UHGV virus genome: UHGV-0103790
From: a virus
Direction: 5' to 3' (one strand)
Length of the DNA: 47,038 nucleotides
Each line of letters begins with the position of its first letter. Positions within the stretch are counted from its first letter, which is position 1. This document shows positions 5,677 through 42,117 of the stretch, piece after piece. The position numbers were made by a program, and so were the translations under genes. Below the pieces are notes generated by a model that ran no database searches, had not been told where the DNA came from, and saw nothing but the letters and a program-made list of their open reading frames with translations.

Positions 5677-6135
5677 TCAAAAACTATCAATTTGTATGCT
5701 CTTATCATGAGGCTTTTTCAAAGGGTAATGCGTTGCTCTCCAGTCATTGAATGCCATCATGGCTGCTTCCCACCCAAGGCATACGCACACAAAGCATTCT
5801 GCTTTTTTACTCGCCTCAAGATACTCAAGCTGACCATCCTCCCATTCGCAAAGTGTATGGTCTCTCCTCTTCATCTCAATGACAAGTGATGGGTTCCCAG
5901 GGATTATTATATCTGAAGCTCCTTTGTTTAAAGCTCCCTTCTTTTTTAGATTATTAACTTCGTGCGCTCTTCTCTTCCCCTCGTTTGGGACGTGAAGAAC
6001 AAGGCGCCCAAAACTGTCAGGATACATTCTCTTCAACTGATTTATGAATGTTACAAGTTCAGCATCTTCTACAGGACATTTTTTATTGCGGTAGTCCTTT
6101 TCACCATAAATCTTTAACCACTCAGGAAAAATCAT
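5677..6135 (-). CDS. VRR-NUC domain nuclease (PD-(D/E)xK)
   Basis: Motif SDIIIPGNPSLVIEMKR matches the D...E.K core of VRR-NUC. ATGA overlap with the upstream helicase gene. Confidence 0.7.
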   Translation of the reverse strand: MIFPEWLKIYGEKDYRNKKCPVEDAELVTFINQLKRMYPDSFGRLVLHVPNEGKRRAHEVNNLKKKGALNKGASDIIIPGNPSLVIEMKRRDHTLCEWEDGQLEYLEASKKAECFVCVCLGWEAAMMAFNDWRATHYPLKKPHDKSIQIDSF

Positions 6136-7994
6136 AACTCACCCCAATACATTCCTTTCACATTGTAATATTTGCTGCCTTTATCCTTTCTGAACATAAT
6201 GGCAGTAGGATGTGTGGCATCTTCTCTTCTAGATAGTGCTTCATCTATTTCCAGTACCTCTCCAAAAGATTTAATACTGAAGTCTTCCCATTCTCTTCTT
6301 TGCCACGTATTTTCTGCCATGGGTTTAAAGAATTTGTTAACGAACCATGGCGACTGCTCAATAGCAAACTTAACTACCAACATATCATCACCACTGCTTA
6401 CATAGTGGCGAGTTATGCTCATCATTGTAACTTTTGATTGCTTGGTTGCATCTGGCGCAGCATCAAGTCTTGCAGCCTCTTCCTGTAGCTTCTTGTTTGG
6501 ATCAATAATTTCTGCTTTGCAGCTCACGCAGTTACGAGCAGCAATATCATTTTCAAAACCACAATCAGGGCACTCTTTGAATGACCATTTATACGTGCAG
6601 CGACGCATTTCACGCAGCGCACCAACCATAATATAGTTCTTACAGCGGCGCCCAAAGTGTCCGGGCATTGGCTTTTGTCCGATCTTTTCGCCAGATTTAT
6701 CATAAATGTCTACCATTATTCTGTCACCAGCGAGATCAAGCCAATATCCCTCACTGTCCATCTCAAGGCCTTCTGGATTTGGACGCACTCCAAATTCATT
6801 AACAAATCCGCATGATGGGCATTTTACTTCCATTGGAACAGATGGTTTTTTTCGTGTTGCTTTAATCTCAGGAGTAAACAGGTCTCCTGTCTCCGCAAAA
6901 TGACGCTCTATGTTTCCTGCATAGTCGCTAACGAGATAGTTTTCCTTACCTTCGTAGAGCCTGGTTCCACGACCTATTATCTGCTGATACAGGCGCGGCG
7001 ACTCTGTGGCGCGCATTACAGCAATATGATCGCAATGTGGCACATCGACGCCAACCGTAAGGATATTCTGGTTGACGATGTATTTAACCTTCTGCGCCTT
7101 AAAATCTGATATAGCCTTGTTGCGCTCAGCAGTAGACATATCACCGAAAACATAGCTATAACTACCAGGAGGCAGAGATTCCATAATCTCCATGGCATGC
7201 TTTTTCGTGCTGGCGAAAATCATAGTTCCCCGGCGATTCGCTGATCTCCTGACAATATCCTCAACGATACGAGACGTCTTGCGTCCTTTTCCAACCATGG
7301 CGCGTTCTACGGATGCCGTTGTATAACGCCCAAGTTTATCCTTCTCAAGTCCAGAGGTATCATATTCTTCTTCTACGTGCTCAGTAACTGGAGGAGTCAG
7401 ATAGCCGTTATCAATCAGGAATTTTGCCTCAAGCTCATAAACAACCTTGTCATAGTAAGGTTCAATCGCCGTCTCTTCGTCGGTTGGTCCATCAATATAG
7501 TGCTCTTTATAGATATAACCAGTACCAAGGCGATAAGGCGTTGCGGTCATGCCAATGATGCGCAGCTTTGGGTTGCGACGCCTCATCTCATTAATAATAA
7601 ATTTAATGGTTGGAGTAATGCCATCACACTCGTCAATAATTACAGCTCCATATTTATCGCCGAACATTTCAATAGAGTTTTTTATTGTGACAGGAGAGCC
7701 AAAAACAACAGGGTGGCGCAGATTTTTAGGGCCAGCCTTGGCGCTGAACATGCTTGCTGGCTCGCCAGTTAAGAGGTATTTAGAGCGATTCTGCGTCACA
7801 AGCTCCCCTGTGGGAGCAATGCAAAGCACGCGTTTTTTACTCATCTCATAGATGCGTGCTGCAAGCTCAGCGACAACCATTGACTTGCCTGCGCCAGTAG
7901 GGAGAATAATAACGCATGATGAGATGGTGCTTCTAATGTGAGCCATAGCCGCGTCAACTGCTTCCTGTTGGTATGGCCTTAGCGTATATTTCAT
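6132..7994 (-). CDS. SF2 DNA helicase (DEAD/DEAH-like) with C-terminal zinc-ribbons
   Basis: Walker A ILPTGAGKS, motif II IIDECD, C-terminal CPSCGF and CPDCGF...CVSCK zinc fingers. Translationally coupled to neighbouring genes. Confidence 0.8.
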   Translation of the reverse strand: MKYTLRPYQQEAVDAAMAHIRSTISSCVIILPTGAGKSMVVAELAARIYEMSKKRVLCIAPTGELVTQNRSKYLLTGEPASMFSAKAGPKNLRHPVVFGSPVTIKNSIEMFGDKYGAVIIDECDGITPTIKFIINEMRRRNPKLRIIGMTATPYRLGTGYIYKEHYIDGPTDEETAIEPYYDKVVYELEAKFLIDNGYLTPPVTEHVEEEYDTSGLEKDKLGRYTTASVERAMVGKGRKTSRIVEDIVRRSANRRGTMIFASTKKHAMEIMESLPPGSYSYVFGDMSTAERNKAISDFKAQKVKYIVNQNILTVGVDVPHCDHIAVMRATESPRLYQQIIGRGTRLYEGKENYLVSDYAGNIERHFAETGDLFTPEIKATRKKPSVPMEVKCPSCGFVNEFGVRPNPEGLEMDSEGYWLDLAGDRIMVDIYDKSGEKIGQKPMPGHFGRRCKNYIMVGALREMRRCTYKWSFKECPDCGFENDIAARNCVSCKAEIIDPNKKLQEEAARLDAAPDATKQSKVTMMSITRHYVSSGDDMLVVKFAIEQSPWFVNKFFKPMAENTWQRREWEDFSIKSFGEVLEIDEALSRREDATHPTAIMFRKDKGSKYYNVKGMYWGEL

Positions 7995-8368
7995 AAATCA
8001 AGGCCCTCACACCATGCAACAACATGCTCGCACTGCTCAATATCAAACATACCAATATGGCATTGCTCTTTGTAAATACCCATGCTTTTTGCCAACGCGG
8101 TATAAGCAGCACCGCGCGTCATCCTTCCTGACTTCCACAATGGGTCAAAAGCAGCATGTGCTTTGCTTTTTGCTTTTCGTAATTCAGCATTAGCTACACG
8201 TCCAAGTGGTCTTTTACCATCTCCATTTTTGTGGCATCCAACATATGCACCGCATGAGTCGCAAAGATAAAAATTAAGTGATGCAAGGTCGGGTCTATGC
8301 GGATAAATTTCATTTCCTTTTGCCAGTCTTGTCGCAGTATTGCAATAATCACATTTTAATTGATACAT
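7991..8368 (-). CDS. zinc-ribbon protein (DUF3268-like)
   Basis: CDYC...CDSC cysteine pairs in a 125-aa ORF coupled (ATGA) to the helicase gene. Confidence 0.45.
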   Translation of the reverse strand: MYQLKCDYCNTATRLAKGNEIYPHRPDLASLNFYLCDSCGAYVGCHKNGDGKRPLGRVANAELRKAKSKAHAAFDPLWKSGRMTRGAAYTALAKSMGIYKEQCHIGMFDIEQCEHVVAWCEGLDL

Positions 8369-8383
8369 AAATCTTCCTTTAGA

Positions 8384-8418
8384 AAAAAAGGGCCACGAAT
8401 GGCCCTTGGTTACTTTTT
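8384..8418 (-). terminator. rho-independent terminator after the SSB-like gene
   Basis: AGGGCCA-cgaa-TGGCCCT hairpin. The T-run follows on the minus strand (a run of eight A precedes the stem on the plus strand) and a weaker T tract follows on the plus strand. Confidence 0.6.
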
Positions 8419-8422
8419 GAAA

Positions 8423-8959
8423 TCAAAATGGCACATCATCGTCGAAGTCAACCGGCGGCTCTCCATCCTGCGGCTTTGCCGTTTGCTTTTGTTGCTTTGC
8501 TGCTGGAGCTGCTTTAGTCTGCTGGCGACCAAATACCCCGGCAACGTAGTTGCCTGACTTCTGCTTATCGTCAGACTGCCAGACGCGAAGCAGGAGTATC
8601 ATCGGTCGGTTAGCCAGAGCGCTTGCGATAGCGAAATCAGTAGGTTCTTTCCCTGAAGCCATCAGTTTGCCACCAGCGTTTGCATCAATTGCTGCCAGCA
8701 TGCTGATGGCGTTATCGCGTTGCTTATCCTTCTGGCTGAAAACTTTCAGCTTCTGGAATATGATGCGGTTTTTGTAATCGCCATCCAGGATGCGCCACTT
8801 CAGGTTAAAAAAGCGCTCACCTTCCCATTCATCGTCCTTGCACTCCTCAACAGCAGCCAGCACGCGAGTGCCGTCAGGAATAACTTCAAAACCACCACCA
8901 GCCTCAAATTCAGATTTTGACTCAACTTCTTTACCGTCAGAAAGATTCCAGAATCCCAT
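8423..8959 (-). CDS. ssDNA-binding protein with E. coli SSB-like acidic C-terminal tail
   Basis: The C-terminus DFDDDVPF nearly matches the E. coli SSB tip DFDDDIPF. A Gln/Ala/Lys-rich linker precedes it. It sits in the Sak4/Gp157 recombination module. Confidence 0.6.
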   Translation of the reverse strand: MGFWNLSDGKEVESKSEFEAGGGFEVIPDGTRVLAAVEECKDDEWEGERFFNLKWRILDGDYKNRIIFQKLKVFSQKDKQRDNAISMLAAIDANAGGKLMASGKEPTDFAIASALANRPMILLLRVWQSDDKQKSGNYVAGVFGRQQTKAAPAAKQQKQTAKPQDGEPPVDFDDDVPF

Positions 8960-8975
8960 TTTTATGTCCTCTCGA

Positions 8976-9455
8976 TTATTTGATGATCAGCTTTGGTTTT
9001 CCATCGGTGATGGCACAACCTTTAATTTCAGTTCCGGCTTTCAGTGCCGCTTTAATGGCTGCATTATCTGCCGAAAATTTTACAACGCGATACTGCTCTG
9101 GCAACTGCTCAACCGGGACAAGCACATCCAAAACAGGAGATGGTTTGCCAAGCGTGATGCTGAACAGCTTGCCTTTGATGTTCGTTTTTCCAGATGCCAG
9201 AATGTTCTGACGAAGATAATCTTTCAGGTTATCTATCTTCGCAGTTAGCACCCGCTTGCGTTCTGACAGACGGTCAATCTCAGCCTTCATGCCAGCTTCA
9301 TCCGCCTCAAGCTCGCTGATATAAGCGGCAACCATCTCGGCCTTTCCTTCAAACTCCTCCTCAATCAGGTTAATGGTGTCTTCAATCTGCTCGCGTGGAA
9401 TATCTTCCATCGCAAGCAGTTCGTTAAGCTGTTTCGTTATTTCGTAAAGACGCAT
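8976..9455 (-). CDS. Gp157-family protein (Sak4-associated)
   Basis: N-terminal coiled-coil with an acidic region, length ~160 aa, immediately downstream of a Sak4-like ATPase. Confidence 0.5.
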   Translation of the reverse strand: MRLYEITKQLNELLAMEDIPREQIEDTINLIEEEFEGKAEMVAAYISELEADEAGMKAEIDRLSERKRVLTAKIDNLKDYLRQNILASGKTNIKGKLFSITLGKPSPVLDVLVPVEQLPEQYRVVKFSADNAAIKAALKAGTEIKGCAITDGKPKLIIK

Positions 9456-10284
9456 AATACTTAATCTCTGTCAGAAGTGGATTTTCGCCTTTATCAAACT
9501 GAATCTCAGGTTCAAGGTTGAAGCGATTTTTCGCATTAACGTAACCAACCCGGCCATCACCAGAGGTGACAAGTACACGCTGCCCAGTCTGCACAACCTT
9601 ACCGAACTTAGTTACCTGCCCTTTTTTATCTGTCTCAGTACCCTTCACAAACTCCTCATTGCGGATATAGATAACAGCATCGCTAAGCGCAACGTAACCA
9701 TCAATACTGGCTTCGTGCATGTTGAGAGTGTAAACGGTGTACTCGTCAGAATCAGGTCGGTTCTTCATCTTACGTATGCCAGCATGCGCAAGATAAATGA
9801 TGCTCATCCCTTTGTTAGAGCGAAGATACTTGCATGCGTTAATAATTTCAGCATGCATCTCAGCCACAACCAGATAGCCCTTGTTGTAACCACCAGCTGC
9901 TGCTCCAACGTTATCTACTCCATAGTTTTCGCAAACCTCATGCTCAAACATGGCGTGGAGGCTGGTGATAGAGTCGATAACCAGAGTTTTATAGTCATGC
10001 TCTTCTGTGATAAGAGCGCGCAACTGCGACAACAAGTCTTCTTTTGTACTCGTCTTGCGCTTTGCATCAGCTCGTTTCAGTACCGGGAATGAATCAGGCT
10101 TGTTTTCTTCGTCCCAGTCGTCGAATACGCCGGTAATCTCTTCCGCCTGAATGAAAACAGGCTTAGGAAAAAGCGCTGCCAGAGTCGTCTTGCCAACGCC
10201 AGGGGTGCCAACAAGAGTAATGATAGGTGCAACTGGTTTTGGTTTTTGAATCATTGATAAGCTCATAATGTCCTCTCGAATCAC
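9424..10284 (-). CDS. Sak4-like RecA-fold ATPase (ssDNA annealing / recombination)
   Basis: Walker A LVGTPGVGKTT at the N-terminus, ~286 aa, RecA-like core. First gene of the minus-strand replication/recombination operon. Confidence 0.7.
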   Translation of the reverse strand: MIREDIMSLSMIQKPKPVAPIITLVGTPGVGKTTLAALFPKPVFIQAEEITGVFDDWDEENKPDSFPVLKRADAKRKTSTKEDLLSQLRALITEEHDYKTLVIDSITSLHAMFEHEVCENYGVDNVGAAAGGYNKGYLVVAEMHAEIINACKYLRSNKGMSIIYLAHAGIRKMKNRPDSDEYTVYTLNMHEASIDGYVALSDAVIYIRNEEFVKGTETDKKGQVTKFGKVVQTGQRVLVTSGDGRVGYVNAKNRFNLEPEIQFDKGENPLLTEIKYYASLRNNETA

Positions 10285-10309
10285 TCAGCGTTGTTGCTGG
10301 TGTGAGTAA

Positions 10310-10338
10310 AAGATACGACAGGACATTCGTCAGGTCAA
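10310..10338 (-). promoter_or_regulatory. sigma70-type promoter for the Sak4-to-helicase operon
   Basis: On the minus strand: TTGACC, 17-bp spacer, TATCTT, then RBS GAGAGGA before the ATG at 10284. Confidence 0.55.
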
Positions 10339-10342
10339 TAGC

Positions 10343-10371
10343 TTTACATAAAAATATTTTGCGTTTATCAT
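10343..10371 (+). promoter_or_regulatory. sigma70-type promoter for the HTH-primase operon
   Basis: TTTACA (10343-10348), 17-bp spacer, TATCAT (10366-10371). Lies back-to-back with the leftward promoter. Confidence 0.55.
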
Positions 10372-10397
10372 TCTTCTATAAATTAGAAGGAGGAAAG

Positions 10398-10640
10398 ATG
10401 AAAACCATCGCTGAACAAATCAAAGAAATGGAAAAGAAGGCTCTTGATGCTCTTATTGAGCATATGGGAGGACAGGCATCGCTGGCGCGATGCCTTGGCG
10501 TTTCTCGTCAATCAGTAAACGAATGGGTTTCCCGTGGGCGCATCAGCGCAACGGCTGCCATAGAGGTAGATAAGCTAACCAACGGACTTTTTAAAAAGGA
10601 AGATTTGCGCCCAGCAGTTACTCAATGGAGAGCGAAATAA
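10398..10640 (+). CDS. XRE/Cro-type HTH transcriptional regulator
   Basis: Strong RBS AGGAGG before the ATG at 10398. HTH signature QASLARCLGVSRQSVNEWVSRG. Confidence 0.7.
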   Translation: MKTIAEQIKEMEKKALDALIEHMGGQASLARCLGVSRQSVNEWVSRGRISATAAIEVDKLTNGLFKKEDLRPAVTQWRAK

Positions 10641-12958
10641 TGACAGGATACAAGGATTATCACGCCGCAGGATTCCCTGTTATAGGAATCTACCCGATGG
10701 ATCATGACAGAAAATGCACCTGCGAGCGTCCTGAATGCGACGCAGCAGGCAAGCACCCCATAATGTCAAACTGGCAATGTGGAATCATATGGGAAGATGA
10801 CCAACTCGAAAACATGCGCGAGTTTGGCCAGCTAAACAGCTTCGGTGTGCTGGTCGATGGCTATCTTGTCGTGGATGTTGACCCGCGAAATGGTGGCAAT
10901 GAAGGGTATGAGGCGCTTTGCGAGGCGCTTGATATGGAGCTTGCCGATGAATCAGGATTTGTGGTGAACACTGGTGGTGGCGGAAAGCATATTTATTATA
11001 AATTGCCAAATGGAGTGAAGCTCAATTCTCACGACAAGCGATTCAAAGGAATTGACTTCAAGTCTTCAGGCTTCGTGATAGGGTGTGGATCATTCCATAA
11101 ATCAGGCAACTTTTATGAGGCTGAGCATGGCTCTCCGTCATCCATAACAGAGCCTCCGTCGTCACTTGTTGAGCTATTGCAACGAGCAGAGCGAGAGGAA
11201 TTTTCACTCGGTGCCGAATCATTTTCCATGCAGGAACTTCAGGACATGCTGAACCACATTAACTGTGGTGAAGATTATGAGGACTGGATTCGCGTTGGCA
11301 TGGCAATTCATGAGGCAACAGATGGTAACGGATTTGATTTGTGGGACTCATGGTCATCACGCTTCTCAAAGTATGACCCATCTGATATGGATTACCACTG
11401 GCACTCATATGGTAAGGGAAATGGGGACCGCGTCACTGCTGCTACTCTTGTTCATCTGGCGGAAGAGGGTGGATGGGTTCGTGCAGTATCATTTCAGGCG
11501 TCGCCAGAAGAGATTGCATTGCTTGAGAAGTTTGAGAAAAAAATGGCGATGGGCGTTGGTGAATGCCCCGTCGATTACAAATCTGTTGATGTGCGGTTTC
11601 CGCCAGGGTTCGTCGGAAAGTTGACGGAGTGGATTAACAGAAACTGCGCTGAGAAAAGAGAATATCTTGCAGCTCTGGCAGCCATCCATGCGGCATCAAT
11701 CATCTGCGGCGCCTCTTCAGATATTTACCTTACCAATCGTAAGGCTGTACCAAATCTTTTTTCTATTGGCATCGCCGGGTCTGGCTCAGGAAAGGGTGAC
11801 GTGCTTGCGGCCCTGCAAAAAATTATCGACTGCTCAGGACTCAGCAAGACAGTGGCCGGTAAAATCCGTTCTGAAAGAGCCATATATGAGGGGCTGGCAG
11901 CTAATCAGATGTTTAACCTCATTATGGATGAGATTGGCATCAAACTAGGCAGTGTGGTTGGACAAAAGGTCAGCGAGTACAACATGGCCACGGCTGGCGC
12001 ACTAATGGAGTCATACACAGCAGAAATACTGTACTGTGACCAGCGCATCACTGATGAATACGTCAAGCAGTTTGAAAAAAGGCTTGGCACTCTCATGATG
12101 ATGATCGAAGAAAACGAGTTGCAAGCAGACCCTGCCGATATTAAGCGTCAGTTTGAAGATGTGATTAGTCGTATAGATGGTGCGATACGAAATCCTTTCT
12201 TTTCCATGTTTGGTGTATCTACGGATGACCAGTTCAAAAAACTCATTACCGAAGAGAACATCAAATCAGGTCTCATGGGTCGCGCCATGATTATGCAGGA
12301 GCTTCAGGAAATCGCAGACGAAAACGAAGACGTGGAATACTGCGACCTGCCAATGCCCATGCAAATGACTATAAAAACAATAATAAATGGCACTACTGCT
12401 GGTTACAAAAACTGGACTGAATCAATCATAAGCAGCAAAGAAAGGCGAGCAATAAAGGCAACGCCAGAGGTTTCAGCGATGGCAAAAGAGTTTTTTTCAT
12501 GGCTCAAGATGATTGCCCGTCAGCACGTAGAAAATGGCACGGGTTATCAACCGTTGATTAACCGATGCGCTGTAAAGGTGGCGAAGATAGCCGGGATTCT
12601 TGCCTGCGATACTGGCGTTATTACAATGGAGCATCTACGGTACGCCGTTGCGCTCACCATCAAATCAACAAGCGATTTAATGATGCGGGCTGATAGTTTG
12701 TCAGGGGCTAACTCCAAGAGCAACGACAGGCGCGTAGAAGGGCTTGAATCGCTTGTCCGTGAGTACGTCAAGCGTGGAATGGCCCGCAAAGCGATCATCA
12801 TTGGCGTGGCCAAGGATGGAAACTATAAACGAGCTGACTCTGAGCGCATGCTGGACAAGCTCATTGAAGACGGCGAGGTTATTGAGGATAAAGAGGCCAA
12901 GCGTACAAGCAACCGGGCCATCATCTACAAATTAGTTAATGATGAGGTAAGCATATGA
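10640..12958 (+). CDS. primase-helicase (AEP prim-pol N-terminal domain plus SF3 / D5-like helicase)
   Basis: N-terminal VVDVDPRNGG...HIYYKL...GSFHKSG prim-pol motifs. Walker A GSGSGKGD in the C-terminal half. RBS GGAGAG before the ATG at 10640; an alternative ATG at 10625 exists. Confidence 0.75.
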   Translation: MTGYKDYHAAGFPVIGIYPMDHDRKCTCERPECDAAGKHPIMSNWQCGIIWEDDQLENMREFGQLNSFGVLVDGYLVVDVDPRNGGNEGYEALCEALDMELADESGFVVNTGGGGKHIYYKLPNGVKLNSHDKRFKGIDFKSSGFVIGCGSFHKSGNFYEAEHGSPSSITEPPSSLVELLQRAEREEFSLGAESFSMQELQDMLNHINCGEDYEDWIRVGMAIHEATDGNGFDLWDSWSSRFSKYDPSDMDYHWHSYGKGNGDRVTAATLVHLAEEGGWVRAVSFQASPEEIALLEKFEKKMAMGVGECPVDYKSVDVRFPPGFVGKLTEWINRNCAEKREYLAALAAIHAASIICGASSDIYLTNRKAVPNLFSIGIAGSGSGKGDVLAALQKIIDCSGLSKTVAGKIRSERAIYEGLAANQMFNLIMDEIGIKLGSVVGQKVSEYNMATAGALMESYTAEILYCDQRITDEYVKQFEKRLGTLMMMIEENELQADPADIKRQFEDVISRIDGAIRNPFFSMFGVSTDDQFKKLITEENIKSGLMGRAMIMQELQEIADENEDVEYCDLPMPMQMTIKTIINGTTAGYKNWTESIISSKERRAIKATPEVSAMAKEFFSWLKMIARQHVENGTGYQPLINRCAVKVAKIAGILACDTGVITMEHLRYAVALTIKSTSDLMMRADSLSGANSKSNDRRVEGLESLVREYVKRGMARKAIIIGVAKDGNYKRADSERMLDKLIEDGEVIEDKEAKRTSNRAIIYKLVNDEVSI

Positions 12959-18138: not shown

Positions 18139-18237
18139 CTGATTTATAATAATCAATGCGGCTAGGGGGCACCCGAAAAGCGACTCATCACCGCCTGCCG
18201 CATTCACTTCAATGATGCCCTGATGAGGAATCTATAT

Positions 18238-20757
18238 ATGGCACGCAAAAGACTCTCAGCACCAGCAATTGAAAAACTCGAAGAGATTATTGGCGATGGC
18301 GTGATTGATGCGCCTGAATCTGCGGTGTTCGGTGTTGTTAATACAGATAAGCAGATTGTTCGCAAACTAAAAATGACGCAAAGCGGAGTTGATGACGTTA
18401 GCGACTCTGATATTGGCGTTGATCACCTGATACCAGAAAAGCTGGAAAAGCTACTTTACCCCAAGCGTAATAAGATTGTGTTTGGCGGGCGCGGATGCTT
18501 AGCCATCGGCACGATGGTGAGGATGTTTGATGGTAGCCTAAAACGCGTAGAGGATATCGTTGTTGGCGATAAGGTTATGGGTCCAGACAGTAAACCACGA
18601 AATGTTTTAAACATCTGTCGGGGGTTTGATGACATGTATACGGTTCATCAAAAATATGCTGATGACTACACTGTCAACTCAAGTCACATACTGTCATTAC
18701 GAAAGATTCCATCTGCTATCAGTGACGAGACAAAAACACCGGATGGTAAAAGAATTTATCGTTATTACCCGAATGAACCTGTAATACTGAATATTGGTGT
18801 TTCAGAATATTTGTCGCGCGCAACTTCCAAAAAGTTCCGCCATGTCTTTAAAGGGTGGCGAACAGGATGGGATTTTAATGACCAAAGCGTCCCAGTTGAC
18901 CCGTACTTTCTTGGTTTATGGTTAGGTGATGGTTCATCTCGTGGTGTTGAAGTGTGCACGCCTGATCCAGAGATAGTTGACTACATTCACAACGTGGCAA
19001 GCAAATACGGGATGCAGGTAAAGGTTCGCGACGATGATAGATGCCCTGTCTATGCGATAACTAATGGTCGAGCTGCTGGCATGGGGAAGAACACCAACCC
19101 GTTACTAACTAAAATGCAGCAGCTTGGGGTGATTAATAATAAACACATACCTGACTGCTATATCAAAAACAGCAGAGAGGTAAGACTTCAGATTCTGGCT
19201 GGGCTATTGGATACTGATTCGCATTATGACCAGAAAAAGAAAAGCTATTCTTTCACATCAATAAATAAAGAAATGGCCTTCTCTTTGATGGATGTGGCAA
19301 GATCGCTTGGCTTCAAGTCAAGCATAATCAAAAAGACTGATGTCACCTTTGAATATAAAGGTGAGAAAAGAATATACGAAAAGGACGTATGGGAGGTGTT
19401 CGTTAGTGGTGACCTTCATACAATCCCATGCCGAGTAAAAAGGAAGATAGCAGAGAAAACCAAGTCAACCCGTGGAAAGATGACTGAGGTGTCATTGTCT
19501 TATGTCGGGCATGGTGAATACGCTGGGTTCACTATTGATGGCGATCATCTTTTCCTGCTTGCTGATGGCACGGTTACACACAACAGCGGAAAAACAAGGA
19601 CAGTAACAACAATACTTACGGAGCGTGCACGCTTTAAGCCTGACAGGATAGCTTGTTTTCGTGAGATTCAGCAGTCTATTGAGGATAGTTCATATCAGGA
19701 GCTGAAAGACGAGATTGACAGGAAGGGCGAGACAAAAGAGTTTCGCGTCATCAACAACGAAATAACACACAAGGTAACGAAAGCAAAGTTCCGCTTTAAA
19801 GGCCTGTATCGCAACCAGACGACCGTAAAAGGCTTCGCTGGCATTACAGTAGCTTGGGTCGAGGAGGCGGAAAACGTCAGCCAGACAAGCTGGGAAATCC
19901 TCACCCCAACAGTCCGCGCTGAAGGGTCAGAGATATGGGTGACTTTCAACCCAAATAAAGAGCATGACCCGACGTGGAAAATATGGGTTGAGCCTTTTTA
20001 TAATAAATTGCGCGAAAATGGCGGCATCTATGAGGATGATGAAAACCTGATTATGGAGTGTAATTACTCAGACAATCCGTGGTTCTGGGATACTCCGCTC
20101 CCAAGCCAAATGCAACGCATGAAAGAGACCGACTTCGACCGCTATCAATGGGTGTGGGGTGGGCGCTTTAATAAGCGTAATGATGAGCAGGTATTTGGCG
20201 GTAAGTGGCGCGTTGCTGATTTCGAGGTTAAGCCGGAATGGCATGGGCCTTACTTTGGCATCGACTTTGGATTCTCGCAGGACGCAACGGCGATGGTTGA
20301 GGTTTACATTGAGAAACTTCCTGATGACCGCCGCAACCTTTACGTCGCGCGCGAATACGGCCGTGTAGGCCTTGAGATTACCGACACACCTACAGCGATG
20401 GAGCAATCATTCCCACTCTCCAGGAAGGCAAGATGGTATGGGGACTGCTCTCGGCCAGAAACAATCAGTCACATCAAACGCGCAGGATTTGATATCCATC
20501 CATGCAATAAGTGGCCCGGGAGCGTGGAGGATGGTGTAACCTGGCTCAGGGGTTGCGACAGCATCATCATTCATGACCGCTGCACACAGACTCAGGAAGA
20601 GTTCACTATGTACAGTTACAAGGTGGACAAGTTGACGGGTAACGTGCTCACAAATATTGTGGATGCGTGGAACCACTTCATTGACGCAATCAGATATGCA
20701 TGCAACGATCACATCGTACAGCGTGGCTCTGGATGGATTAGAAGGAGCAGGAGATAA
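18238..20757 (+). CDS. terminase large subunit, intein-containing precursor
   Basis: Walker A split as ...FGGRG | intein | SGKTRTV. C-terminal nuclease-like region. ATG at 18238 with RBS GAGGA. Confidence 0.8.
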   Translation: MARKRLSAPAIEKLEEIIGDGVIDAPESAVFGVVNTDKQIVRKLKMTQSGVDDVSDSDIGVDHLIPEKLEKLLYPKRNKIVFGGRGCLAIGTMVRMFDGSLKRVEDIVVGDKVMGPDSKPRNVLNICRGFDDMYTVHQKYADDYTVNSSHILSLRKIPSAISDETKTPDGKRIYRYYPNEPVILNIGVSEYLSRATSKKFRHVFKGWRTGWDFNDQSVPVDPYFLGLWLGDGSSRGVEVCTPDPEIVDYIHNVASKYGMQVKVRDDDRCPVYAITNGRAAGMGKNTNPLLTKMQQLGVINNKHIPDCYIKNSREVRLQILAGLLDTDSHYDQKKKSYSFTSINKEMAFSLMDVARSLGFKSSIIKKTDVTFEYKGEKRIYEKDVWEVFVSGDLHTIPCRVKRKIAEKTKSTRGKMTEVSLSYVGHGEYAGFTIDGDHLFLLADGTVTHNSGKTRTVTTILTERARFKPDRIACFREIQQSIEDSSYQELKDEIDRKGETKEFRVINNEITHKVTKAKFRFKGLYRNQTTVKGFAGITVAWVEEAENVSQTSWEILTPTVRAEGSEIWVTFNPNKEHDPTWKIWVEPFYNKLRENGGIYEDDENLIMECNYSDNPWFWDTPLPSQMQRMKETDFDRYQWVWGGRFNKRNDEQVFGGKWRVADFEVKPEWHGPYFGIDFGFSQDATAMVEVYIEKLPDDRRNLYVAREYGRVGLEITDTPTAMEQSFPLSRKARWYGDCSRPETISHIKRAGFDIHPCNKWPGSVEDGVTWLRGCDSIIIHDRCTQTQEEFTMYSYKVDKLTGNVLTNIVDAWNHFIDAIRYACNDHIVQRGSGWIRRSRR
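18496..19584 (+). mobile_element. intein (363 aa) with LAGLIDADG homing endonuclease domain inside the terminase P-loop
   Basis: Begins with Cys (CLAIGT) and ends with THN followed by Ser. Two LAGLIDADG-type motifs, LGLWLGDGS and LAGLLDTDS. Removal restores GGRGSGKT. Confidence 0.8.
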
Positions 20758-33312: not shown

Positions 33313-33324
33313 TTGGGGGTTATC

Positions 33325-34143
33325 ATGGCTGTCAGGTACGAAATAAACACAACTCCGGCTGACGGAGAGGTTTTGCTTAGCGAAACCATGCCAGCAGACT
33401 GGACTGCATTGCAGGTGCAGATTGTGCCATTAAACTCTTCCGGCGGTCATGCACCATTAACAAGCGGCTCTGTCTCCGTAATGGTATCGCCGTTTGCATC
33501 TGGTGACTTCTGGATTGACGTTAACAATAATAATTATTATGGCGTGGCGCTGCGACTGAAGGTGATCAAGTCACAACTCCCTGCTGGCGTTGCATCCCTG
33601 AAAGTCCTGGTATGGCGAGCTGATACCTCAGTGCCGTCAAGTCAGGTTGTCGCGCAGTCCTACTCGGAGCTTGCCAACAAGCAGGGGAAGTTATTCACCG
33701 CATCGCGTCGCGTGACTGATGTTGCTGGCGGCGCGAACCTTGACAGCATTTTTATTACCGGCTCAAAACAGGTCGTTTTTAATCGGCGCATCATTGGCTA
33801 CACCGGGAAAGGTGTCGTAGCGTCAATCTACCGTGGAGCTGTAGCTACTGGCGGCACCGCTGCGGAGATTAATAACCCAAATGATATCGCGCCGCATACT
33901 GCAACGGCGCAGCTTCTGACTGGCTCTACTGTGACAAGTATCGGCCAGCTGACGGTGGCCGCGACGTATAGTGAAGGAAACGCATCTAATCAGGGGCAGG
34001 GTAATTCGCAGGCAAAACTCGGTGAACAGGTCATCATGGCGCCTAATACCACCTATCTGTTACGCATCACATCGCTGGATACTTCGACGCAAAATGTCAA
34101 TGCTTACGTTTCGTGGTTTGAGGATGACGCTTATCTTCCGTGA
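33325..34143 (+). CDS. putative virion structural protein
   Basis: 273 aa, Thr/Ser/Gly-rich, beta-rich composition, in the capsid module. ATG at 33325; the listed start is a TTG. Confidence 0.4.
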   Translation: MAVRYEINTTPADGEVLLSETMPADWTALQVQIVPLNSSGGHAPLTSGSVSVMVSPFASGDFWIDVNNNNYYGVALRLKVIKSQLPAGVASLKVLVWRADTSVPSSQVVAQSYSELANKQGKLFTASRRVTDVAGGANLDSIFITGSKQVVFNRRIIGYTGKGVVASIYRGAVATGGTAAEINNPNDIAPHTATAQLLTGSTVTSIGQLTVAATYSEGNASNQGQGNSQAKLGEQVIMAPNTTYLLRITSLDTSTQNVNAYVSWFEDDAYLP

Positions 34144-34146
34144 TAA

Positions 34147-34180
34147 AAGAAAAGCCCCAGAAGGGGCTTTGTTTACTTAT
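34147..34180. terminator. bidirectional terminator
   Basis: GCCCC-agaa-GGGGC hairpin followed by TTTGTTT, between convergent genes. Confidence 0.6.
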
Positions 34181-34427
34181 GGTCGCGAAGTTGAATGAGA
34201 TTATCAATCAGCCGCTGGATTGCGGCGTTATCTTTAAATGTGATGTAAATTTCAGACTCATCAGTATCATTAGTTTTATCGCCGGGAATGCCGCGATTTA
34301 TGGTATTCGCAAAAGCTATTAACTTTTCTCCATTGCAATAGCCAGCTTTAATGCCAACGTAACCATCGCCAAGACGGGCAACTTTTGAGCCATCATTCTG
34401 AGTAAAAACGCCATTCTTTTTCATCAC
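34173..34427 (-). CDS. hypothetical protein
   Basis: 84-aa last gene of the minus-strand ParB/MTase/DnaN-like operon. Confidence 0.45.
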   Translation of the reverse strand: MMKKNGVFTQNDGSKVARLGDGYVGIKAGYCNGEKLIAFANTINRGIPGDKTNDTDESEIYITFKDNAAIQRLIDNLIQLRDHK

Positions 34428-34963
34428 TAAATCCTCATTGGCATAACGATAACTTTTGCAGTCTCGCCAGTAGGTGCATTAATGTTTGCGACGGCGGCGC
34501 TGGTGTTGCCATTAAGCTCAAATAGCACCGCCTCATATTTAGGGTTAAACAGCTTCGCCAGCTTCTCTACATCTACCAGATATTTGGCGTTGAAGCCGAT
34601 TTGCTCTGTTGCCGCTGTCTGCTTCGGGATGACGCGATCAATATCAGGGTAATTGCCGTTAATTTCGGAACAAATCCCTGCGCCTACCATGATTTCATGC
34701 TCGTCATGGTAAGTAACAATACCTGTTTTGGTGTCCAGTAGCGCATGCGCATAACGCTTAGTTGGCGACTTGCTTACCGATACGATGACGTTACTTTTTA
34801 TCTTGTTTTCGTGCTTACTGGCAATCATGGCGCGATGACCGTCAGTAGCGGCAACTCGACCATCAGGCATAAAGCAAATGCCATTCAGGTAGTAACGCAC
34901 ATCCTGTTTGGCTTGAAATATCAAAGCACCTTCAAGGAGTAACTTGCTAACTTTTAATTTCAT
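34427..34963 (-). CDS. truncated beta sliding clamp (DnaN) homolog covering domain II and the C-terminal half of domain III
   Basis: QDVRYYLNG, ATDGHR, YPDIDRVIPKQ (DnaN FPDYRRVLPKN) and C-terminal KVIVMPMRI (DnaN AYVVMPMRL) match E. coli DnaN from memory. Only ~177 aa against 366. ATG at 34963. Confidence 0.55.
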   Translation of the reverse strand: MKLKVSKLLLEGALIFQAKQDVRYYLNGICFMPDGRVAATDGHRAMIASKHENKIKSNVIVSVSKSPTKRYAHALLDTKTGIVTYHDEHEIMVGAGICSEINGNYPDIDRVIPKQTAATEQIGFNAKYLVDVEKLAKLFNPKYEAVLFELNGNTSAAVANINAPTGETAKVIVMPMRI

Positions 34964-35136
34964 CACTTCACCTTTATCATGTGTTGTTTTGCAACCTTCA
35001 GGCATTCATCGAAAATCTTGCCATTCTTTTCACTCTGGTTGCTCCTGTAGTGGGTAATTGCGGCCTCTATAGCCGAGTTGTCGATACCTGGCAGTTTTTC
35101 GCGCAGGTTTTTCTCTATGAATTGTTCGTGGTTCAT
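34963..35136 (-). CDS. small hypothetical protein (57 aa)
   Basis: ATGA overlap with the methyltransferase gene and TGATG overlap with the DnaN-like gene. Confidence 0.35.
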
Positions 35137-35786
35137 CCTAAAATCCTTTTTTTTGCTACTTCAAAATACCCATCATCTTTTTCGATTCCTATAAATCTGC
35201 GGCCCGTGTTGATGCATGCTACGCCTGTTGTGCCGCTACCCATTACATTATCAAGCACCACATCGCCCTCATTGGTTGATGCCAGAATAAGCCTTTCCAT
35301 CAATGATACTGGCTTTTCGGTGGGGTGGATTTTTGCCCTGCCAGACGGCGCTTGCCAAATAGCCTTCTTGCAATGCTCATTAAATGTTGCGTTTGACTTC
35401 CTTGCAAACACACAAAATTCCAGGCCGCTTAGCCAGAGGCGCTTACCATTCATCGGGCTAGGGTTTGTTTTTTCCCATGCGCCAACGCGAGTTGTTAGGC
35501 CAAAGCTACGGAAGTGAGCAACCAACGTGCTTATTTGCTCTGTTCCACAAAAAGCATAAATACTGCCTGTGCAAATGCGGTTGAAATGTTCTGCGACTTC
35601 AAATAGGTCCATTTCACATCTGTCAGCATTACCGCGATCTAACTTGCGTAATCCACTGCTTTTCTGCGAGACTTCACCGTAAGGCAAATCACACAAAATC
35701 AAATCAATGCTTCTTTCTGGAATAGACTTCATAACTTCCAGGCAATCACCATGAATTAATTTCACGTCTTCATTTATAATCATCAC
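35133..35786 (-). CDS. DNA methyltransferase (beta-class N6A/N4C)
   Basis: DLPYG motif IV precedes the GSGTTG motif I. Confidence 0.7.
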
Positions 35787-36598
35787 AGCTTCTCCAGAAT
35801 AGCCAGAACTTCACTCAACTCAGCGGAAGGAAGGCGCAAAAACTCCTCGGTCTCCTGTGCCACATGACCCTCAGCAACAACCATGTGATCTGCTTCTTTC
35901 AGCAACTGAATCAGGCGGTCAATCGGCTTAACTTTTTTGGCCTTGAGCGTTTTCGCCGTCACCTTATCCTTGCCCTGCGCTTTCGCTTCCTCAACGGCAG
36001 CATCAATAACGTTAACGGCATCATCTCCATGCTCGCGCGCCACTGCAACGGCGTTGGCATAGCTGATTTGTCCTGCATTGATACGTTGCTTGATAGCATC
36101 AGGCACATCACCAAGTGACAGGTGCATCTGCACATCAGAAACTGAGCGACCGACCTTCTTAGCGATTTCTTCATTAGTCCATCCAAAACCTTTCAGGCGC
36201 ACATAAGCCTTTGCACGCTCAAGCGGGTCGAGCTGCTTGCCCTGACTTGAAGACACCATGAAGGCGATTTTATCCGCCTCATCGCCGGTGAAGTCTTTGC
36301 ACTCAATGCGCGCAATTGGCACGCCGCGCTCAATGGCACGCAGTGCGCCCAGATAACGATGCTGTCCGTCAAGAATCTTGATGCGCTTTCCGTCGGCATC
36401 AGGAATAACAGTTAACGCCGGGATTGGCTGGCCTGATTCCCAGCACTGCGCGAAGTATTCAACGTGCTGCTCATCGGCTTCGCGGATGTTGTACCCCGGC
36501 TCAAGATAAAGCTGGTCGACAGGAACCTGATAACCTTTGTTGACCACGATTCCGCCGCGAGTTTCTTTGTCTGAGTAAATTTTTCCGAGAGATGTCAT
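35783..36598 (-). CDS. ParB-like nuclease domain protein
   Basis: [12 protein letters not shown] ParB/Srx motif. ATG at 36598 with RBS GAGGA; ATGA overlap with the methyltransferase gene. Confidence 0.65.
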
Positions 36599-36605
36599 CT
36601 TTTCC

Positions 36606-36722
36606 TCACTTTGATAAACAGATTGCGCTGGCAATGGCGAATCCGATAACGATTAATGCCAGCTTTATTTTGAACTTACCCCACGCTTTCAGGTCTTCTT
36701 TTCGTATTTCGTGGTGGATCAT
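36606..36722 (-). CDS. small membrane protein (38 aa)
   Basis: ATGA overlap with the upstream gene. C-terminal transmembrane helix LALIVIGFAIASAICL. Confidence 0.35.
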   Translation of the reverse strand: MIHHEIRKEDLKAWGKFKIKLALIVIGFAIASAICLSK

Positions 36723-37018
36723 TTGGATTCTCCGAGTGCTTTCGCGATTGCGGCACGCGCTGACAGCAATGCTGGGTTATCAATTGACGCCTCATACTGA
36801 TATGCTTCAACCATATTTTGCAATGCTTCCAGCAACTCCGGCGCGGCAGCGATGAGTTGCGCATTTGCCATTGCCACCGGACCGCGATGCTCATCATTAT
36901 CAAACCAACTTGCGGATGAGCAAACATTCCCAACAGTTCCGCGCACCGCGTTAATGTCATAAAAATAACCGTTATCTTCGACTTCCCACGACCCCGGCGT
37001 ACCTTTGAATTCATTCAT
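36719..37018 (-). CDS. hypothetical protein
   Basis: ATG at 37018 with RBS GAGGTGGTG. First gene after the strong minus-strand promoter. Confidence 0.45.
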   Translation of the reverse strand: MNEFKGTPGSWEVEDNGYFYDINAVRGTVGNVCSSASWFDNDEHRGPVAMANAQLIAAAPELLEALQNMVEAYQYEASIDNPALLSARAAIAKALGESK

Positions 37019-37058
37019 CTTCACCACCTCTAACATTTATTGTTGTTTCTACGTCATC

Positions 37059-37087
37059 ACTATAGCGACACCCTCAATCTACGTCAA
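37059..37087 (-). promoter_or_regulatory. near-consensus sigma70 promoter built on the conserved motif (TTGACG-17-TATAGT)
   Basis: TTGACG is the reverse complement of 37082-37087 and TATAGT the reverse complement of 37059-37064, with an exact 17-bp spacer. Nearly identical to the promoter at 14490-14518. Confidence 0.6.
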
Positions 37088-39169: not shown

Positions 39170-39246
39170 TGGTTCCCGCGACAGGATTCGAACCTGTAAT
39201 CATCCGATTATGAGTCGGGTGCTTTAACCAGTTAAGCTAAACGGGA
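39170..39246 (-). tRNA. tRNA-Met (anticodon CAT; could be Ile2 if lysidinylated)
   Basis: 77-nt cloverleaf on the minus strand. Acceptor TCCCGTT/CGCGGGA, D-stem GCTT/AAGC, anticodon loop CTCATAA, T-arm ACAGG-TTCGAAT-CCTGT, 3' ACCA. Confidence 0.7.
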
Positions 39247-39249
39247 ATT

Positions 39250-39326
39250 TGGTGCACCATACTGGATTCGAACCAGTTACCGATTGCTTAGAAGGCAATT
39301 GCTCTATCCTGATGAGCTAATGGTGC
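39250..39326 (-). tRNA. tRNA-Arg (anticodon TCT)
   Basis: 77-nt cloverleaf on the minus strand. Acceptor GCACCAT/ATGGTGC perfect, D-stem GCTC/GAGC, anticodon stem ATTGC/GCAAT with loop CTTCTAA, T-arm ACTGG-TTCGAAT-CCAGT, 3' ACCA. Confidence 0.8.
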
Positions 39327-40238: not shown

Positions 40239-40994
40239 ATGGCTATTTGTGCAAATGATAACGGCATCATCACAGGTCGCAAGTCGCTCATTGAGCTGGC
40301 TGATGGCTGCTGGGATGCTGTGCCAGTAGAGGAAGATTGGAAGTTTTTTGCTCCCATGACCTCAAAAGGCGTCGACTTCAGCCCAAGCACCACCACCTCA
40401 GAGGCTGATGATGGCGATGGCTTTGTCGCGACGCTGGTCACTACCGCAGACCTCACCATTTCCGGTGATTTTGAAGTTCGTAAGGCTGACAAGGCTGATG
40501 AGTATGGCGTGCACAACCTCATCAAATACTTTGTCACCGAAGTAAAAGCGCGTCGCCAGCCGTCACTGTGGGTGCGTCAAACCACCGGTAATACCGTTGT
40601 CGTTGCTTACTGCAACATTACCGCACTGAGCTACGATGGTGGCACTAACGATATCATCACTGGTTCGGTTGAATTCAAGCCTTATGATGGCTCTACTGTT
40701 GACGTGTCCAGCATCGAAGATTTGACGCTGACTACTGATATCAGTGCAGCCAAAACCGTTGCTACTGGCGACACTCTGACGCTCGGTCCGGTAGTTGCGG
40801 CTGGCGGTGTCGAGCCTTATACCTACCAATGGTATAAAGGCACTTCGCCGATCAGCAGTGCTACTACCAACACGTTCACCAAGACCACTGCTGCCGCAGG
40901 TGATGCTGGTACGTACTTCTGCCGCGTGATGGATTCGGCAACCAGTCCTGATTACGTTGACTCCACCAAGTGTATTGTTACCGTTACGCAATAA
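40239..40994 (+). CDS. major tail protein with C-terminal Ig-like domain
   Basis: 251 aa. The C-terminal ~90 aa are Thr/Ser-rich and beta-rich, as in Ig-like domains. Strong promoter and RBS. Position upstream of the chaperone and tape measure genes. Confidence 0.65.
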   Translation: MAICANDNGIITGRKSLIELADGCWDAVPVEEDWKFFAPMTSKGVDFSPSTTTSEADDGDGFVATLVTTADLTISGDFEVRKADKADEYGVHNLIKYFVTEVKARRQPSLWVRQTTGNTVVVAYCNITALSYDGGTNDIITGSVEFKPYDGSTVDVSSIEDLTLTTDISAAKTVATGDTLTLGPVVAAGGVEPYTYQWYKGTSPISSATTNTFTKTTAAAGDAGTYFCRVMDSATSPDYVDSTKCIVTVTQ

Positions 40995-41383: not shown

Positions 41384-41635
41384 TCATACACACTCATCAA
41401 GCTGACGGCGCAACATGCATAGCGCACCGCGTGGCATTGCCTGGCGACTCACGCCGTCGAAAATCTTCCGGTTGAGGTAATTGGTCACTCGCGGCCTGAT
41501 AGCCTGCCAGCACGCCTTAATGCTGCCATTTACCGGTCGGCGCTCGAGCATGGCGAACTTTGCATATAGTTCCAGCGTCACCAGTGCATCAAGGTATTGC
41601 TCGCAGGCATAGCGATTTTCGTTATCCATCATCAT
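41384..41635 (-). CDS. hypothetical protein
   Basis: 83-aa ORF with ATGA overlap to the HNH gene. Confidence 0.45.
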   Translation of the reverse strand: MMMDNENRYACEQYLDALVTLELYAKFAMLERRPVNGSIKACWQAIRPRVTNYLNRKIFDGVSRQAMPRGALCMLRRQLDECV

Positions 41636-42117
41636 TTACCATGGTTCTCATGAAAATCATACTTAACCTCCGCCTTTCTCCTTGCTTCAGCGGCCATATT
41701 TAAGTCAGAAAACAATCCAAGATGAATCTTTACGCCATCAACTTTTATGTTTGAGGCCCATTTTTTATGTTGTTTACCCCATGAAACACCAGTAACACCT
41801 GATTTGTTTGTCACCCTGAACTTCATGTTGTGATTATTCTCTTTTGGAGTGACAAGCCTGAGGTTATCTATCTTATTGTTTGTTTTATTGTGGTCTATAT
41901 GATCAATCTGCATTCCGTCAGGAATTTTCCCATTATGCATTTCCCAGATGATGCGATGAACAAGATACTTGACGCCATAGATTCCAACAATCTTATATCC
42001 ATTGCCTCCCACCGCCTTCACCTCGCTTCCGATTTTCACTCTGTTTGAGGTTCTTATCTTCCAGTAAATAGCCCCATCACAATAATAAAAAATATCTGAC
42101 CAATCAGTTATTTTCAT
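41632..42117 (-). CDS. HNH homing endonuclease with AP2-like domain (paralog of 17095-17580)
   Basis: IDHIDHNKTNNKIDNLRL HNH motif. C-terminal SGVTGVSWGK...HLGLFSD...AEARRKAEVKYD AP2-type domain. 161 aa, the same length as its paralog. Confidence 0.8.
   Translation of the reverse strand: MKITDWSDIFYYCDGAIYWKIRTSNRVKIGSEVKAVGGNGYKIVGIYGVKYLVHRIIWEMHNGKIPDGMQIDHIDHNKTNNKIDNLRLVTPKENNHNMKFRVTNKSGVTGVSWGKQHKKWASNIKVDGVKIHLGLFSDLNMAAEARRKAEVKYDFHENHGK

Follow-up and report, generated by a model that had tools for sequence, protein, structure and literature searches.

The peptide-binding pocket of the bacterial β sliding clamp, DnaN, is the docking site of most bacterial replication and repair enzymes and an antibiotic target. 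A shorter form of the E. coli clamp, β*, was reportedly described by Skaliter, Paz-Elizur, Livneh and colleagues in 1996 as an internal product of dnaN that comprises domains II and III and acts as a functional trimeric clamp. For the full-length protein, the residues of the clamp-binding-motif (CBM) pocket have been listed, and I272 and L273 have been assigned a role in the dimer interface (PMC11139829). Short homologues of the polymerase III β subunit (polIII-β) account for 5 of 12 in phages (Kazlauskas & Venclovas 2011, PMC3201878), and the herpesvirus proteins UL42 and UL44 are basic, non-ring processivity factors whose cleft takes a polymerase peptide (PMC3201878). Here, we describe a β-clamp fragment, hereafter the mini-clamp, encoded by the virus genome UHGV-0103790, which was analyzed as a single stretch of 47,038 nucleotides (the window). 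The fragment consists of domain II and the C-terminal half of domain III, and it retains the CBM pocket.

The mini-clamp open reading frame (ORF), at 34427–34963 on the minus strand, spans 537 nt and encodes 178 amino acids plus a stop codon, correcting the 177 residues of the initial annotation. An in-frame ATG at 35005, upstream of the ATG at 34963, leads to a 192-aa form that is stored in most database clusters; this extension (34964–35005) would overlap the preceding gene, p57, in another frame. We prefer the 178-aa start because every divergent homologue has its N-terminus at the position of the MKLK sequence, because the start codon is coupled to the p57 stop codon through a TGATG overlap, and because an AGGTG Shine-Dalgarno sequence lies 6–7 nt 5′ of the ATG. 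The 192-aa start that databases usually give for this family is probably wrong.

The mini-clamp is homologous to DnaN, with a similarity far above chance. A phmmer search against the sequences of the PDB returned β clamps, the best at E = 2.6e-12 (6amq) and E. coli β at about 1e-10. The match to TIGR00663 (E = 1.4e-12, 47.2 bits) lies below the curated cut-off of 137.65, and PF02767 and PF02768 (DNA_pol3_beta_2 and DNA_pol3_beta_3) match at E ~1e-3 with 20 bits each, against a cut-off of 27. When a profile built from 22 family members was compared with full-length DnaN using hhalign (probability 98.8%, E = 4e-17), mini-clamp residues 9–178 aligned with DnaN residues 138–366, with a single gap of about 58 residues (DnaN ~256–313). 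The five motifs on which the initial annotation had founded its assignment, QDVRYYLNG, ATDGHR, (Y/F)PD..RV.PK, IGFN..Y..DV and V(V/I)MPMR(L/I), are real matches and align at DnaN 149–157, 171–176, 241–250, 317–327 and 360–366, respectively (Enterobacter/E. coli numbering). Its expectation of similarity to domains II and III without domain I was likewise borne out by phmmer and hhalign, and the alignments agree with the architecture that it had proposed, in which half of domain III is kept together with domain II, the cleft is preserved, and the parts that close the ring are gone.

The AlphaFold2 (AF2) model of the mini-clamp, computed from a 56-sequence alignment, has a pLDDT of 81 and a pTM of 0.80. 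It contains a β-α-β3 unit and four strands that correspond to domain II, followed by a low-confidence linker (residues 107–121) and one further β-α-β3 module. The second inner helix of domain II is not predicted; the segment concerned carries a proline conserved in the family (Pro67), and the model suggests that this helix has apparently been lost. A Foldseek comparison of the model with the PDB ranked β clamps first (E ~7e-7, TMq 0.60–0.65, ~258 alignment columns).

DnaN (TIGR00663; PF00712, PF02767 and PF02768) is a chain of ~366 aa with three clamp-fold domains; the 178-aa mini-clamp has no domain I and lacks DnaN 256–313, the first half of domain III, which includes the I272/L273 dimer-interface strand. 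Both elements of the head-to-tail dimer interface, the edge of domain I and the I272/L273 strand, therefore fall in unaligned regions. Because domain I and the interface strand are absent, the mini-clamp should be unable to form the canonical ring. The same absence leaves the suggestion of the initial annotation that the protein caps host β without a structural basis, as both natural interface partners are missing. Judging from known clamp topology, the half of domain III that is kept should abut domain II and complete the pocket, while the half that is deleted should be the one that forms the dimer interface.

The mini-clamp retains the continuous sheet of domains II and III that carries the CBM pocket. 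Its pocket residues R23, L26, T40, G42, H43, R44, P106, R110, V111, N125, Y128, M174, P175, M176 and R177 are equivalent to E. coli R152, L155, T172, G174, H175, R176, P242, R246, V247, N320, Y323 and M362–R365. Across subsites I and II, 15 of the 18 listed residues are identical to those of E. coli at the sequence level, and two more are conservative. The pocket differs from that of E. coli at L177, which is replaced by alanine, and at V360, which is replaced by isoleucine; the equivalent of V344 is uncertain.

Conservation within the family is concentrated in this pocket. In an alignment of 127 family members that have 27–50% identity with the query, conservation peaks in the columns of P106, G42, R23, M174, G28, Y128, Y25, T40, H43, D21, L26, P175, G103 and R177. 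Ten of these 14 are pocket residues as defined by the published list (PMC11139829), corresponding to E. coli P242, G174, R152, M362, Y323, T172, H175, L155, P363 and R365, and pocket columns are conserved above the other columns (Mann-Whitney p = 3e-7). Among close orthologues, the median dN/dS is 0.09 over 64 pairs; the gene is under purifying selection. We can robustly infer that selection has maintained this non-ring fragment of the clamp for the sake of its peptide-binding cleft.

The mini-clamp is a member of a large, old and already annotated phage family without an assigned function. An exhaustive HMMER search over 1.84 billion representatives gave 1977 representative matches at E<1e-3 and ~145 at E<1e-10, with full-length DnaN first appearing at ~1e-11. 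Nearly all of the best 150 listed matches are 170–215 aa long and align end to end, and the phrog_3007 profile (E = 3.2e-57) covers mini-clamp residues 1–178 with positions 1–186 of its 190. The members resemble one another in length (170–215 aa), in where the protein begins, in the internal stretch that is deleted and in carrying MPxR at the C-terminus; the mini-clamp agrees in all four respects. In BFVD, many phage proteins of 178–215 aa match at a TM-score of ~0.8, among them proteins of Pantoea, Serratia, Burkholderia and Xanthomonas phages. A profile search of genome contigs with a narrower alignment found mostly host dnaN genes with a motif like AKQDVRYYL, together with a few informative copies in prophages of enterobacteria. 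The representative matches also include two long WD40 proteins (P0236 and P0266), which are spurious and were drawn in by a CFSPDGR motif.

The novelty implied by the initial annotation was overstated, given the short phage homologues reported in 2011 and the names that the family already bears in GenBank and RefSeq. In GenBank, the protein of relatives goes under “DNA polymerase III beta subunit” or under “beta clamp subunit”, and in some records just under “DNA polymerase”, while for copies in E. coli prophages PGAP uses “beta clamp domain-containing protein” (e.g., WP_000586688.1). Literature searches found no functional study of this clamp-fragment family. The label of PHROG 3007, “RusA-like Holliday junction resolvase”, has spread into many RefSeq phage records and is wrong for a β-clamp fragment; the places concerned are the mini-clamp ORF of the window, 40393–40971 of locus L003 and 2202–2738 of locus L173. 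A RusA identity was rejected, as no RusA family matched in Pfam (E<=1) or NCBIfam (E<=0.1), and the predicted fold and all PDB matches are those of β clamps.

The orthologue in Salmonella phage seszw (Skatevirus), gene 16, is 70.5% identical to the mini-clamp, and the gene order is the same as in the window: gene 19, the ParB-like gene 18, the p57-like gene 17 and gene 16. This phage has been put through CRISPR-based iterative genome reduction (PMC9825161), and we reconstructed gene presence from the deposited mutant genomes, counting matches at >=99% identity. The capsid gene is found in 72 records, gene 16 in 47 and gene 17 in 15; the mini-clamp is absent from ~25 records, while the ParB-like gene is kept in 70 of the 72. 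Mutants 150S, 170L, 170S, 180L and 180S, two of which are large-plaque isolates, lack genes 16 and 17 and contain genes 18 and 19. In the 38.2-kb mutant 200L, gene 16 is present and gene 17, which is deleted in most reduced seszw genomes, is gone. The mini-clamp orthologue is dispensable for plaque formation by seszw on the laboratory host. The ParB-like gene (35783–36598 in the window and 3933–4742 in locus L165) is probably essential or nearly so, because almost all of the genome-reduced or wild-type records retain it. One would not expect a virulent phage to depend in this way on a “partition” protein.

To place the gene in its wider context, we surveyed 80 loci from IMG/VR; grouping at 70% identity divides them into 22 groups. 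Replication genes lie at most four genes away in ~12 of the 22 groups. In lambdoid phages the arrangement is cI/cro, cII, mini-clamp, O and P/DnaB; elsewhere the mini-clamp stands between a primase and an SF2 helicase that is followed by a PDDEXK exonuclease and VRR-NUC, or near a D5-like primase-helicase and PolA. In further groups it follows a Bro-N protein or is placed between the genes for lysis and those for the head, and in an E. coli prophage it occupies the early-left accessory region between the repressor and xis/int. ParB is a neighbor in only two of the 22 groups and is confined to the clade of the window and its nearest relatives, loci L019 and L020, in which the ParB–mini-clamp pair is directly upstream of a helicase. 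No phage-encoded neighbor is common to the 22 groups, which suggests that the ligand is a host molecule. Lambdoid prophages of E. coli (L164 8338–9653, RMDEC332) show translational coupling of the clamp fragment with an ORF6N-domain protein encoded upstream of it. On plasmids, 103 places give partial matches to the clamp fragment; these plasmids may be phage-plasmids.

Our preferred reading, held tentatively, is that the mini-clamp binds the client proteins of the clamp as an accessory module outside any ring, and that it most likely acts by competing for them or as a decoy. We favor it because the orthologue is dispensable in seszw, because purifying selection is strong, because no phage partner is conserved, and because the gene occupies early-region positions elsewhere. 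In outline, the mini-clamp would be made early from a host-type promoter, and expression from the promoter-like site upstream of its operon is plausible from the sequence. It would act off the ring as a free-standing CBM-binding module and capture host proteins that dock on the β clamp, such as polymerases, the clamp-loader δ subunit, Hda or mismatch-repair proteins; alternatively, its target may be a clamp-targeting toxin or defense effector. Competition of this kind would tilt replication or repair toward the phage, as an accessory and not an essential contribution. We are more doubtful of the stronger proposal that the family as a whole is a viral mimic of the β-clamp cleft, a soluble decoy that neutralizes a clamp-docking host factor.

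Several points weigh against a competitor or decoy. The AF2 segment 107–121, which holds the equivalents of R246 and V247, has low confidence. Some of the pocket conservation could be an ascertainment effect, because no part of β clamps in general is more conserved than the pocket, and the homologues were found by similarity. The dispensability in seszw was observed on a single laboratory host and in genomes that carried several deletions. A strong sink for CBMs could poison the host polymerase III (Pol III) holoenzyme, which the phage needs because no DNA polymerase was found among its ORFs of at least 200 aa; all of its ORFs of at least 460 aa were identified as other proteins. Finally, the replication genes nearby in about half of the groups and the basic isoelectric point (pI) of the mini-clamp, 9.0, fit an adaptor or DNA-bound role at least equally well.

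A role at the replication fork would make the mini-clamp a replisome adaptor or loader-independent processivity factor. Bound to the CBM of host Pol III α (or of a phage polymerase where the phage encodes one), it would keep the polymerase at phage forks by means of a basic surface of its own or of a phage partner protein, much as herpesvirus UL42 does. The replication-module context, the pairing with ParB directly upstream of a helicase in L019 and L020, the basic pI, and a window that encodes a helicase, a primase and an annealase with no DNA polymerase found all agree with such a role. We nevertheless consider it unlikely, as viable seszw mutants without the orthologue, large-plaque isolates included, indicate that it is not required for replication there, pI varies from 4.9 to 9.8 in the family (median 8.25), domain II seems to have lost an inner helix, and no phage partner is conserved. 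The basic pI also bears on the improbable alternative that the conserved cleft binds nucleic acid, for example the single-stranded DNA (ssDNA) of a primer-template junction, so that the protein marks or protects phage replication or recombination intermediates. In the primed-DNA structure 3BEP, ssDNA lies in the CBM pocket of a neighboring clamp (PMC11139829), and annealase, exonuclease and VRR-NUC genes are neighbors of the mini-clamp in several clades; however, the family is not uniformly basic, and the conserved set of residues spans the Gln-binding subsite II together with the hydrophobic subsite I, as peptide recognition requires. By analogy with β*, one could also picture an unconventional homo-oligomeric ring acting as a true sliding clamp, for instance four protomers of 1.5 domains each. 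The domain arithmetic fits (4 × 1.5 = 6), the half-domain, judging from the fold, probably has an exposed surface able to pair with a second copy, and the protein begins at the same domain I/II boundary as β*. We regard this as very unlikely, given that both natural interface elements are absent, that an inner helix appears to be lost with the conserved Pro67 in its place, that no clamp loader is encoded, and that seszw can do without the gene; moreover, a radial dyad relates the two halves of each clamp domain, so three-module units should not tile by simple rotation.

The initial annotation had suggested that the mini-clamp retargets the neighboring ParB-like protein and DNA methyltransferase (MTase), and a targeting or regulatory subunit for one or both of these would be in keeping with the translationally coupled operon. 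The ParB–MTase–mini-clamp synteny that it proposed to check held in part: the order ParB–p57–mini-clamp is kept throughout the Skatevirus/Roufvirus-like clade, whereas close relatives differ in the MTase or lack it. A CBM scan of the window ORFs (14.4 kaa) gave three loose motif matches, which is the level of chance; one of them, QMHLSL, is in the ParB-like protein and fits the loose hexameric CBM pattern, but it lies inside the folded helix-turn-helix (HTH). With the MTase slot variable, a ParB neighbor confined to two of the 22 groups, and the two genes functionally separable in seszw, where ParB is retained in records that lack the mini-clamp, the retargeting hypothesis is weakened, and we judge it quite improbable. 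The reading of the gene as a decaying, functionless remnant of a captured host dnaN would suit scores under the curated DnaN cut-offs and a gene deletable in seszw. It is effectively refuted by the conservation data, with a low dN/dS, invariant pocket residues and the same architecture in >100 clusters at 50% identity, in addition to translational coupling and a good Shine-Dalgarno sequence. A recent one-off truncation of a captured dnaN was rejected on the same ground, as these clusters are divergent. The accessory competitor or decoy is the reading that we tentatively retain.

The window is essentially the whole genome of a small siphovirus of a Skatevirus/Roufvirus-like cluster, whose relatives infect Klebsiella, Salmonella and E. 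coli. The mini-clamp belongs to a cassette (Table 1) that lies between the major capsid gene and the neck/tail-completion genes, a position that had been proposed from the sequence and that annotated relatives confirm; as in those relatives, the cassette is on the strand opposite to the flanking genes. The translational coupling claimed for this operon holds, with ATGA overlaps between p105 and the 38-aa ORF and between the MTase and p57, and TGATG overlaps between ParB and the MTase and between p57 and the mini-clamp; the overlap of the mini-clamp with p84 is TAGTGATG. The near-consensus promoter of the initial annotation corresponds to a site that we also found, although it is a pattern match only, and promoter-like sites in the region are no more numerous than expected from shuffled sequence.

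Table 1. Positions of the mini-clamp, its cassette and other features in the window
Feature	Position	Strand	Description
SF2 helicase	6132–7994		Large window ORF
Sak4-like annealase	9424–10284		Large window ORF
Primase	10625–12958		Large window ORF; 777 aa
int-alpA RNA match	18155–18218		Rfam; 42.6 bits (gathering score 35.8)
Terminase large-subunit ORF	18223–20757		844 aa
276-aa ORF	33313–34143	+	
Stem-loop with T-runs	34151–34170	.	Bidirectional, terminator-like; pattern match; between the cassette and a convergent plus-strand gene
p84	34173–34427	-	Last cassette gene; no family match; in only some relatives
Mini-clamp (mini-DnaN)	34427–34963	-	178-aa β-clamp fragment; domain II and C-terminal half of domain III, CBM pocket kept
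p57	34963–35136	-	Small conserved protein; phrog_4439; always directly upstream of the mini-clamp in this clade
N6/N4 DNA MTase	35133–35783	-	216 aa; PF01555 3.5e-28; PADLOC MTase_II / orphan MTase
ParB/Spo0J-like DNA-binding protein	35783–36598	-	271 aa from ATG 36598; HTH
38-aa ORF	36606–36722	-	One hydrophobic helix; ATGA overlap with p105
p105	36719–37036	-	First cassette gene; 99 aa if started at 37018; phrog_1273, function unknown
Promoter-like site	37059–37087	-	TTGACG-17-TATAGT; sigma-70 type, 10/12 matches; pattern match only
tRNA-Met(CAT) and tRNA-Arg(TCT)	39170–39326	-	Adjacent; inside the neck/tail gene block
HNH-type homing-endonuclease-like ORF	41632–42117	-	161 aa; tail region

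The ParB-like protein matches Pfam HTH_ParB (4e-11) and KorB (3e-6), phrog_1033 (2e-87) and, in the PDB, Spo0J (1vz0, E = 1.4e-11). Its GERRxR box, which is the CTP-binding box in ParB, reads DGQHRY; the activity in the initial label “ParB nuclease” is putative, and the protein is of the Spo0J/ParB HTH type, with a box that deviates from GERRxR. PADLOC returned no defense-system match for any cassette protein except the MTase. In the position of p105, Skatevirus relatives carry an 86-aa “anti-restriction protein”, and 117-nt equivalents of the 38-aa ORF are annotated in KpV2811 and RSU-F4K5. The gap between ParB and p57 is a swap site (35133–35783 in the window, 6712–8149 in L001 and 41099–41550 in L003): it holds the N6/N4 MTase in the window and a C5 MTase with endonuclease VII in KpV2811, whereas neither Tbat1_6 nor seszw has an MTase there, the former having two small ORFs and the latter nothing. 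At the other end, a 276-aa ORF and p84 flank the terminator-like stem-loop between the capsid block and the cassette. Neither matches any family, and each is limited to a subset of the relatives (5 loci in the case of p84); for these reasons they look like variable cargo.

Elsewhere in the window, the large ORFs encode tail proteins, terminase, portal, capsid and tape-measure proteins in addition to the replication proteins listed in Table 1. No clamp loader genes were found in the window phage, and neither a loader nor a DNA polymerase is annotated in its relative Tbat1_6. The replication/recombination module (6132–12958) comprises the Sak4-like annealase and the 777-aa primase in the window, whereas the corresponding genes of Tbat1_6, the closest annotated relative, are for a recombinase, exonuclease VIII and a small zinc-binding primase; this difference indicates mosaic exchange of the module. 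An int-alpA RNA match lies directly upstream of the terminase large-subunit ORF, which is unusually long at 844 aa compared with ~474 aa in Tbat1_6 and may contain an insertion, an intein or a fused upstream ORF. Two adjacent tRNA genes are located inside the neck/tail gene block, and the HNH-type ORF of the tail region has homologues at other positions in related loci (cluster 6, 15 loci). In Klebsiella phage RSU-F4K5, a close relative, a “transposase/putative RNA-guided endonuclease” that is TnpB-like (L002 10775–11890) lies among the neck/tail genes, a few kb from the cassette.

If the decoy proposal is true, the family would be a new class of phage host-takeover or counter-defense protein, one that imitates the binding site of a hub instead of attacking the hub. 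A widespread, pocket-only phage protein would be a natural tool to perturb the clamp network and could reveal clients that are relevant in infection. Its importance is limited by the fact that the family is already known and annotated, that the orthologue is dispensable in the laboratory, and that the parts of the mechanism concerning the binding of CBM peptides by the pocket, the identity of the ligand and the benefit to the phage are ones that we infer.

Compared with bacterial DnaN (E. coli, 2POL and 1MMI), the mini-clamp shares the domain II fold, the C-terminal β-α-β3 module and a nearly identical CBM pocket. It differs in having 178 and not 366 residues, in lacking domain I, DnaN 256–313 and the dimer interface, and in the apparent loss of the second inner helix of domain II; it is also phage-encoded and, judging from seszw, dispensable, falls below the curated cut-offs, and is basic, whereas DnaN is acidic. 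Both β* and the mini-clamp lack the N-terminal part of a clamp and begin at the boundary between domains I and II (~residue 135–138), but β* has all of domain III, whereas the mini-clamp is without half of it and without the interface strand. It belongs to the same family and length class as the short phage polIII-β homologues (PMC3201878), which were described as covering the second and third domains, whereas the mini-clamp has only half of the third. UL42 and UL44 are likewise clamp-fold proteins of viruses without a clamp loader and are basic, as the mini-clamp is by its pI; UL42, however, comprises two whole clamp domains and serves a polymerase of its own virus, whereas no virus-encoded polymerase was found in the window phage and a relative can do without the mini-clamp gene. 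Phage Mu MuC and gp168 of phages Twort and G1 act on the same host hub, the β clamp network (PMC12867686, PMC11139829). These proteins bind the clamp, whereas the mini-clamp appears to imitate the clamp’s own binding site, which would amount to the inverse strategy.

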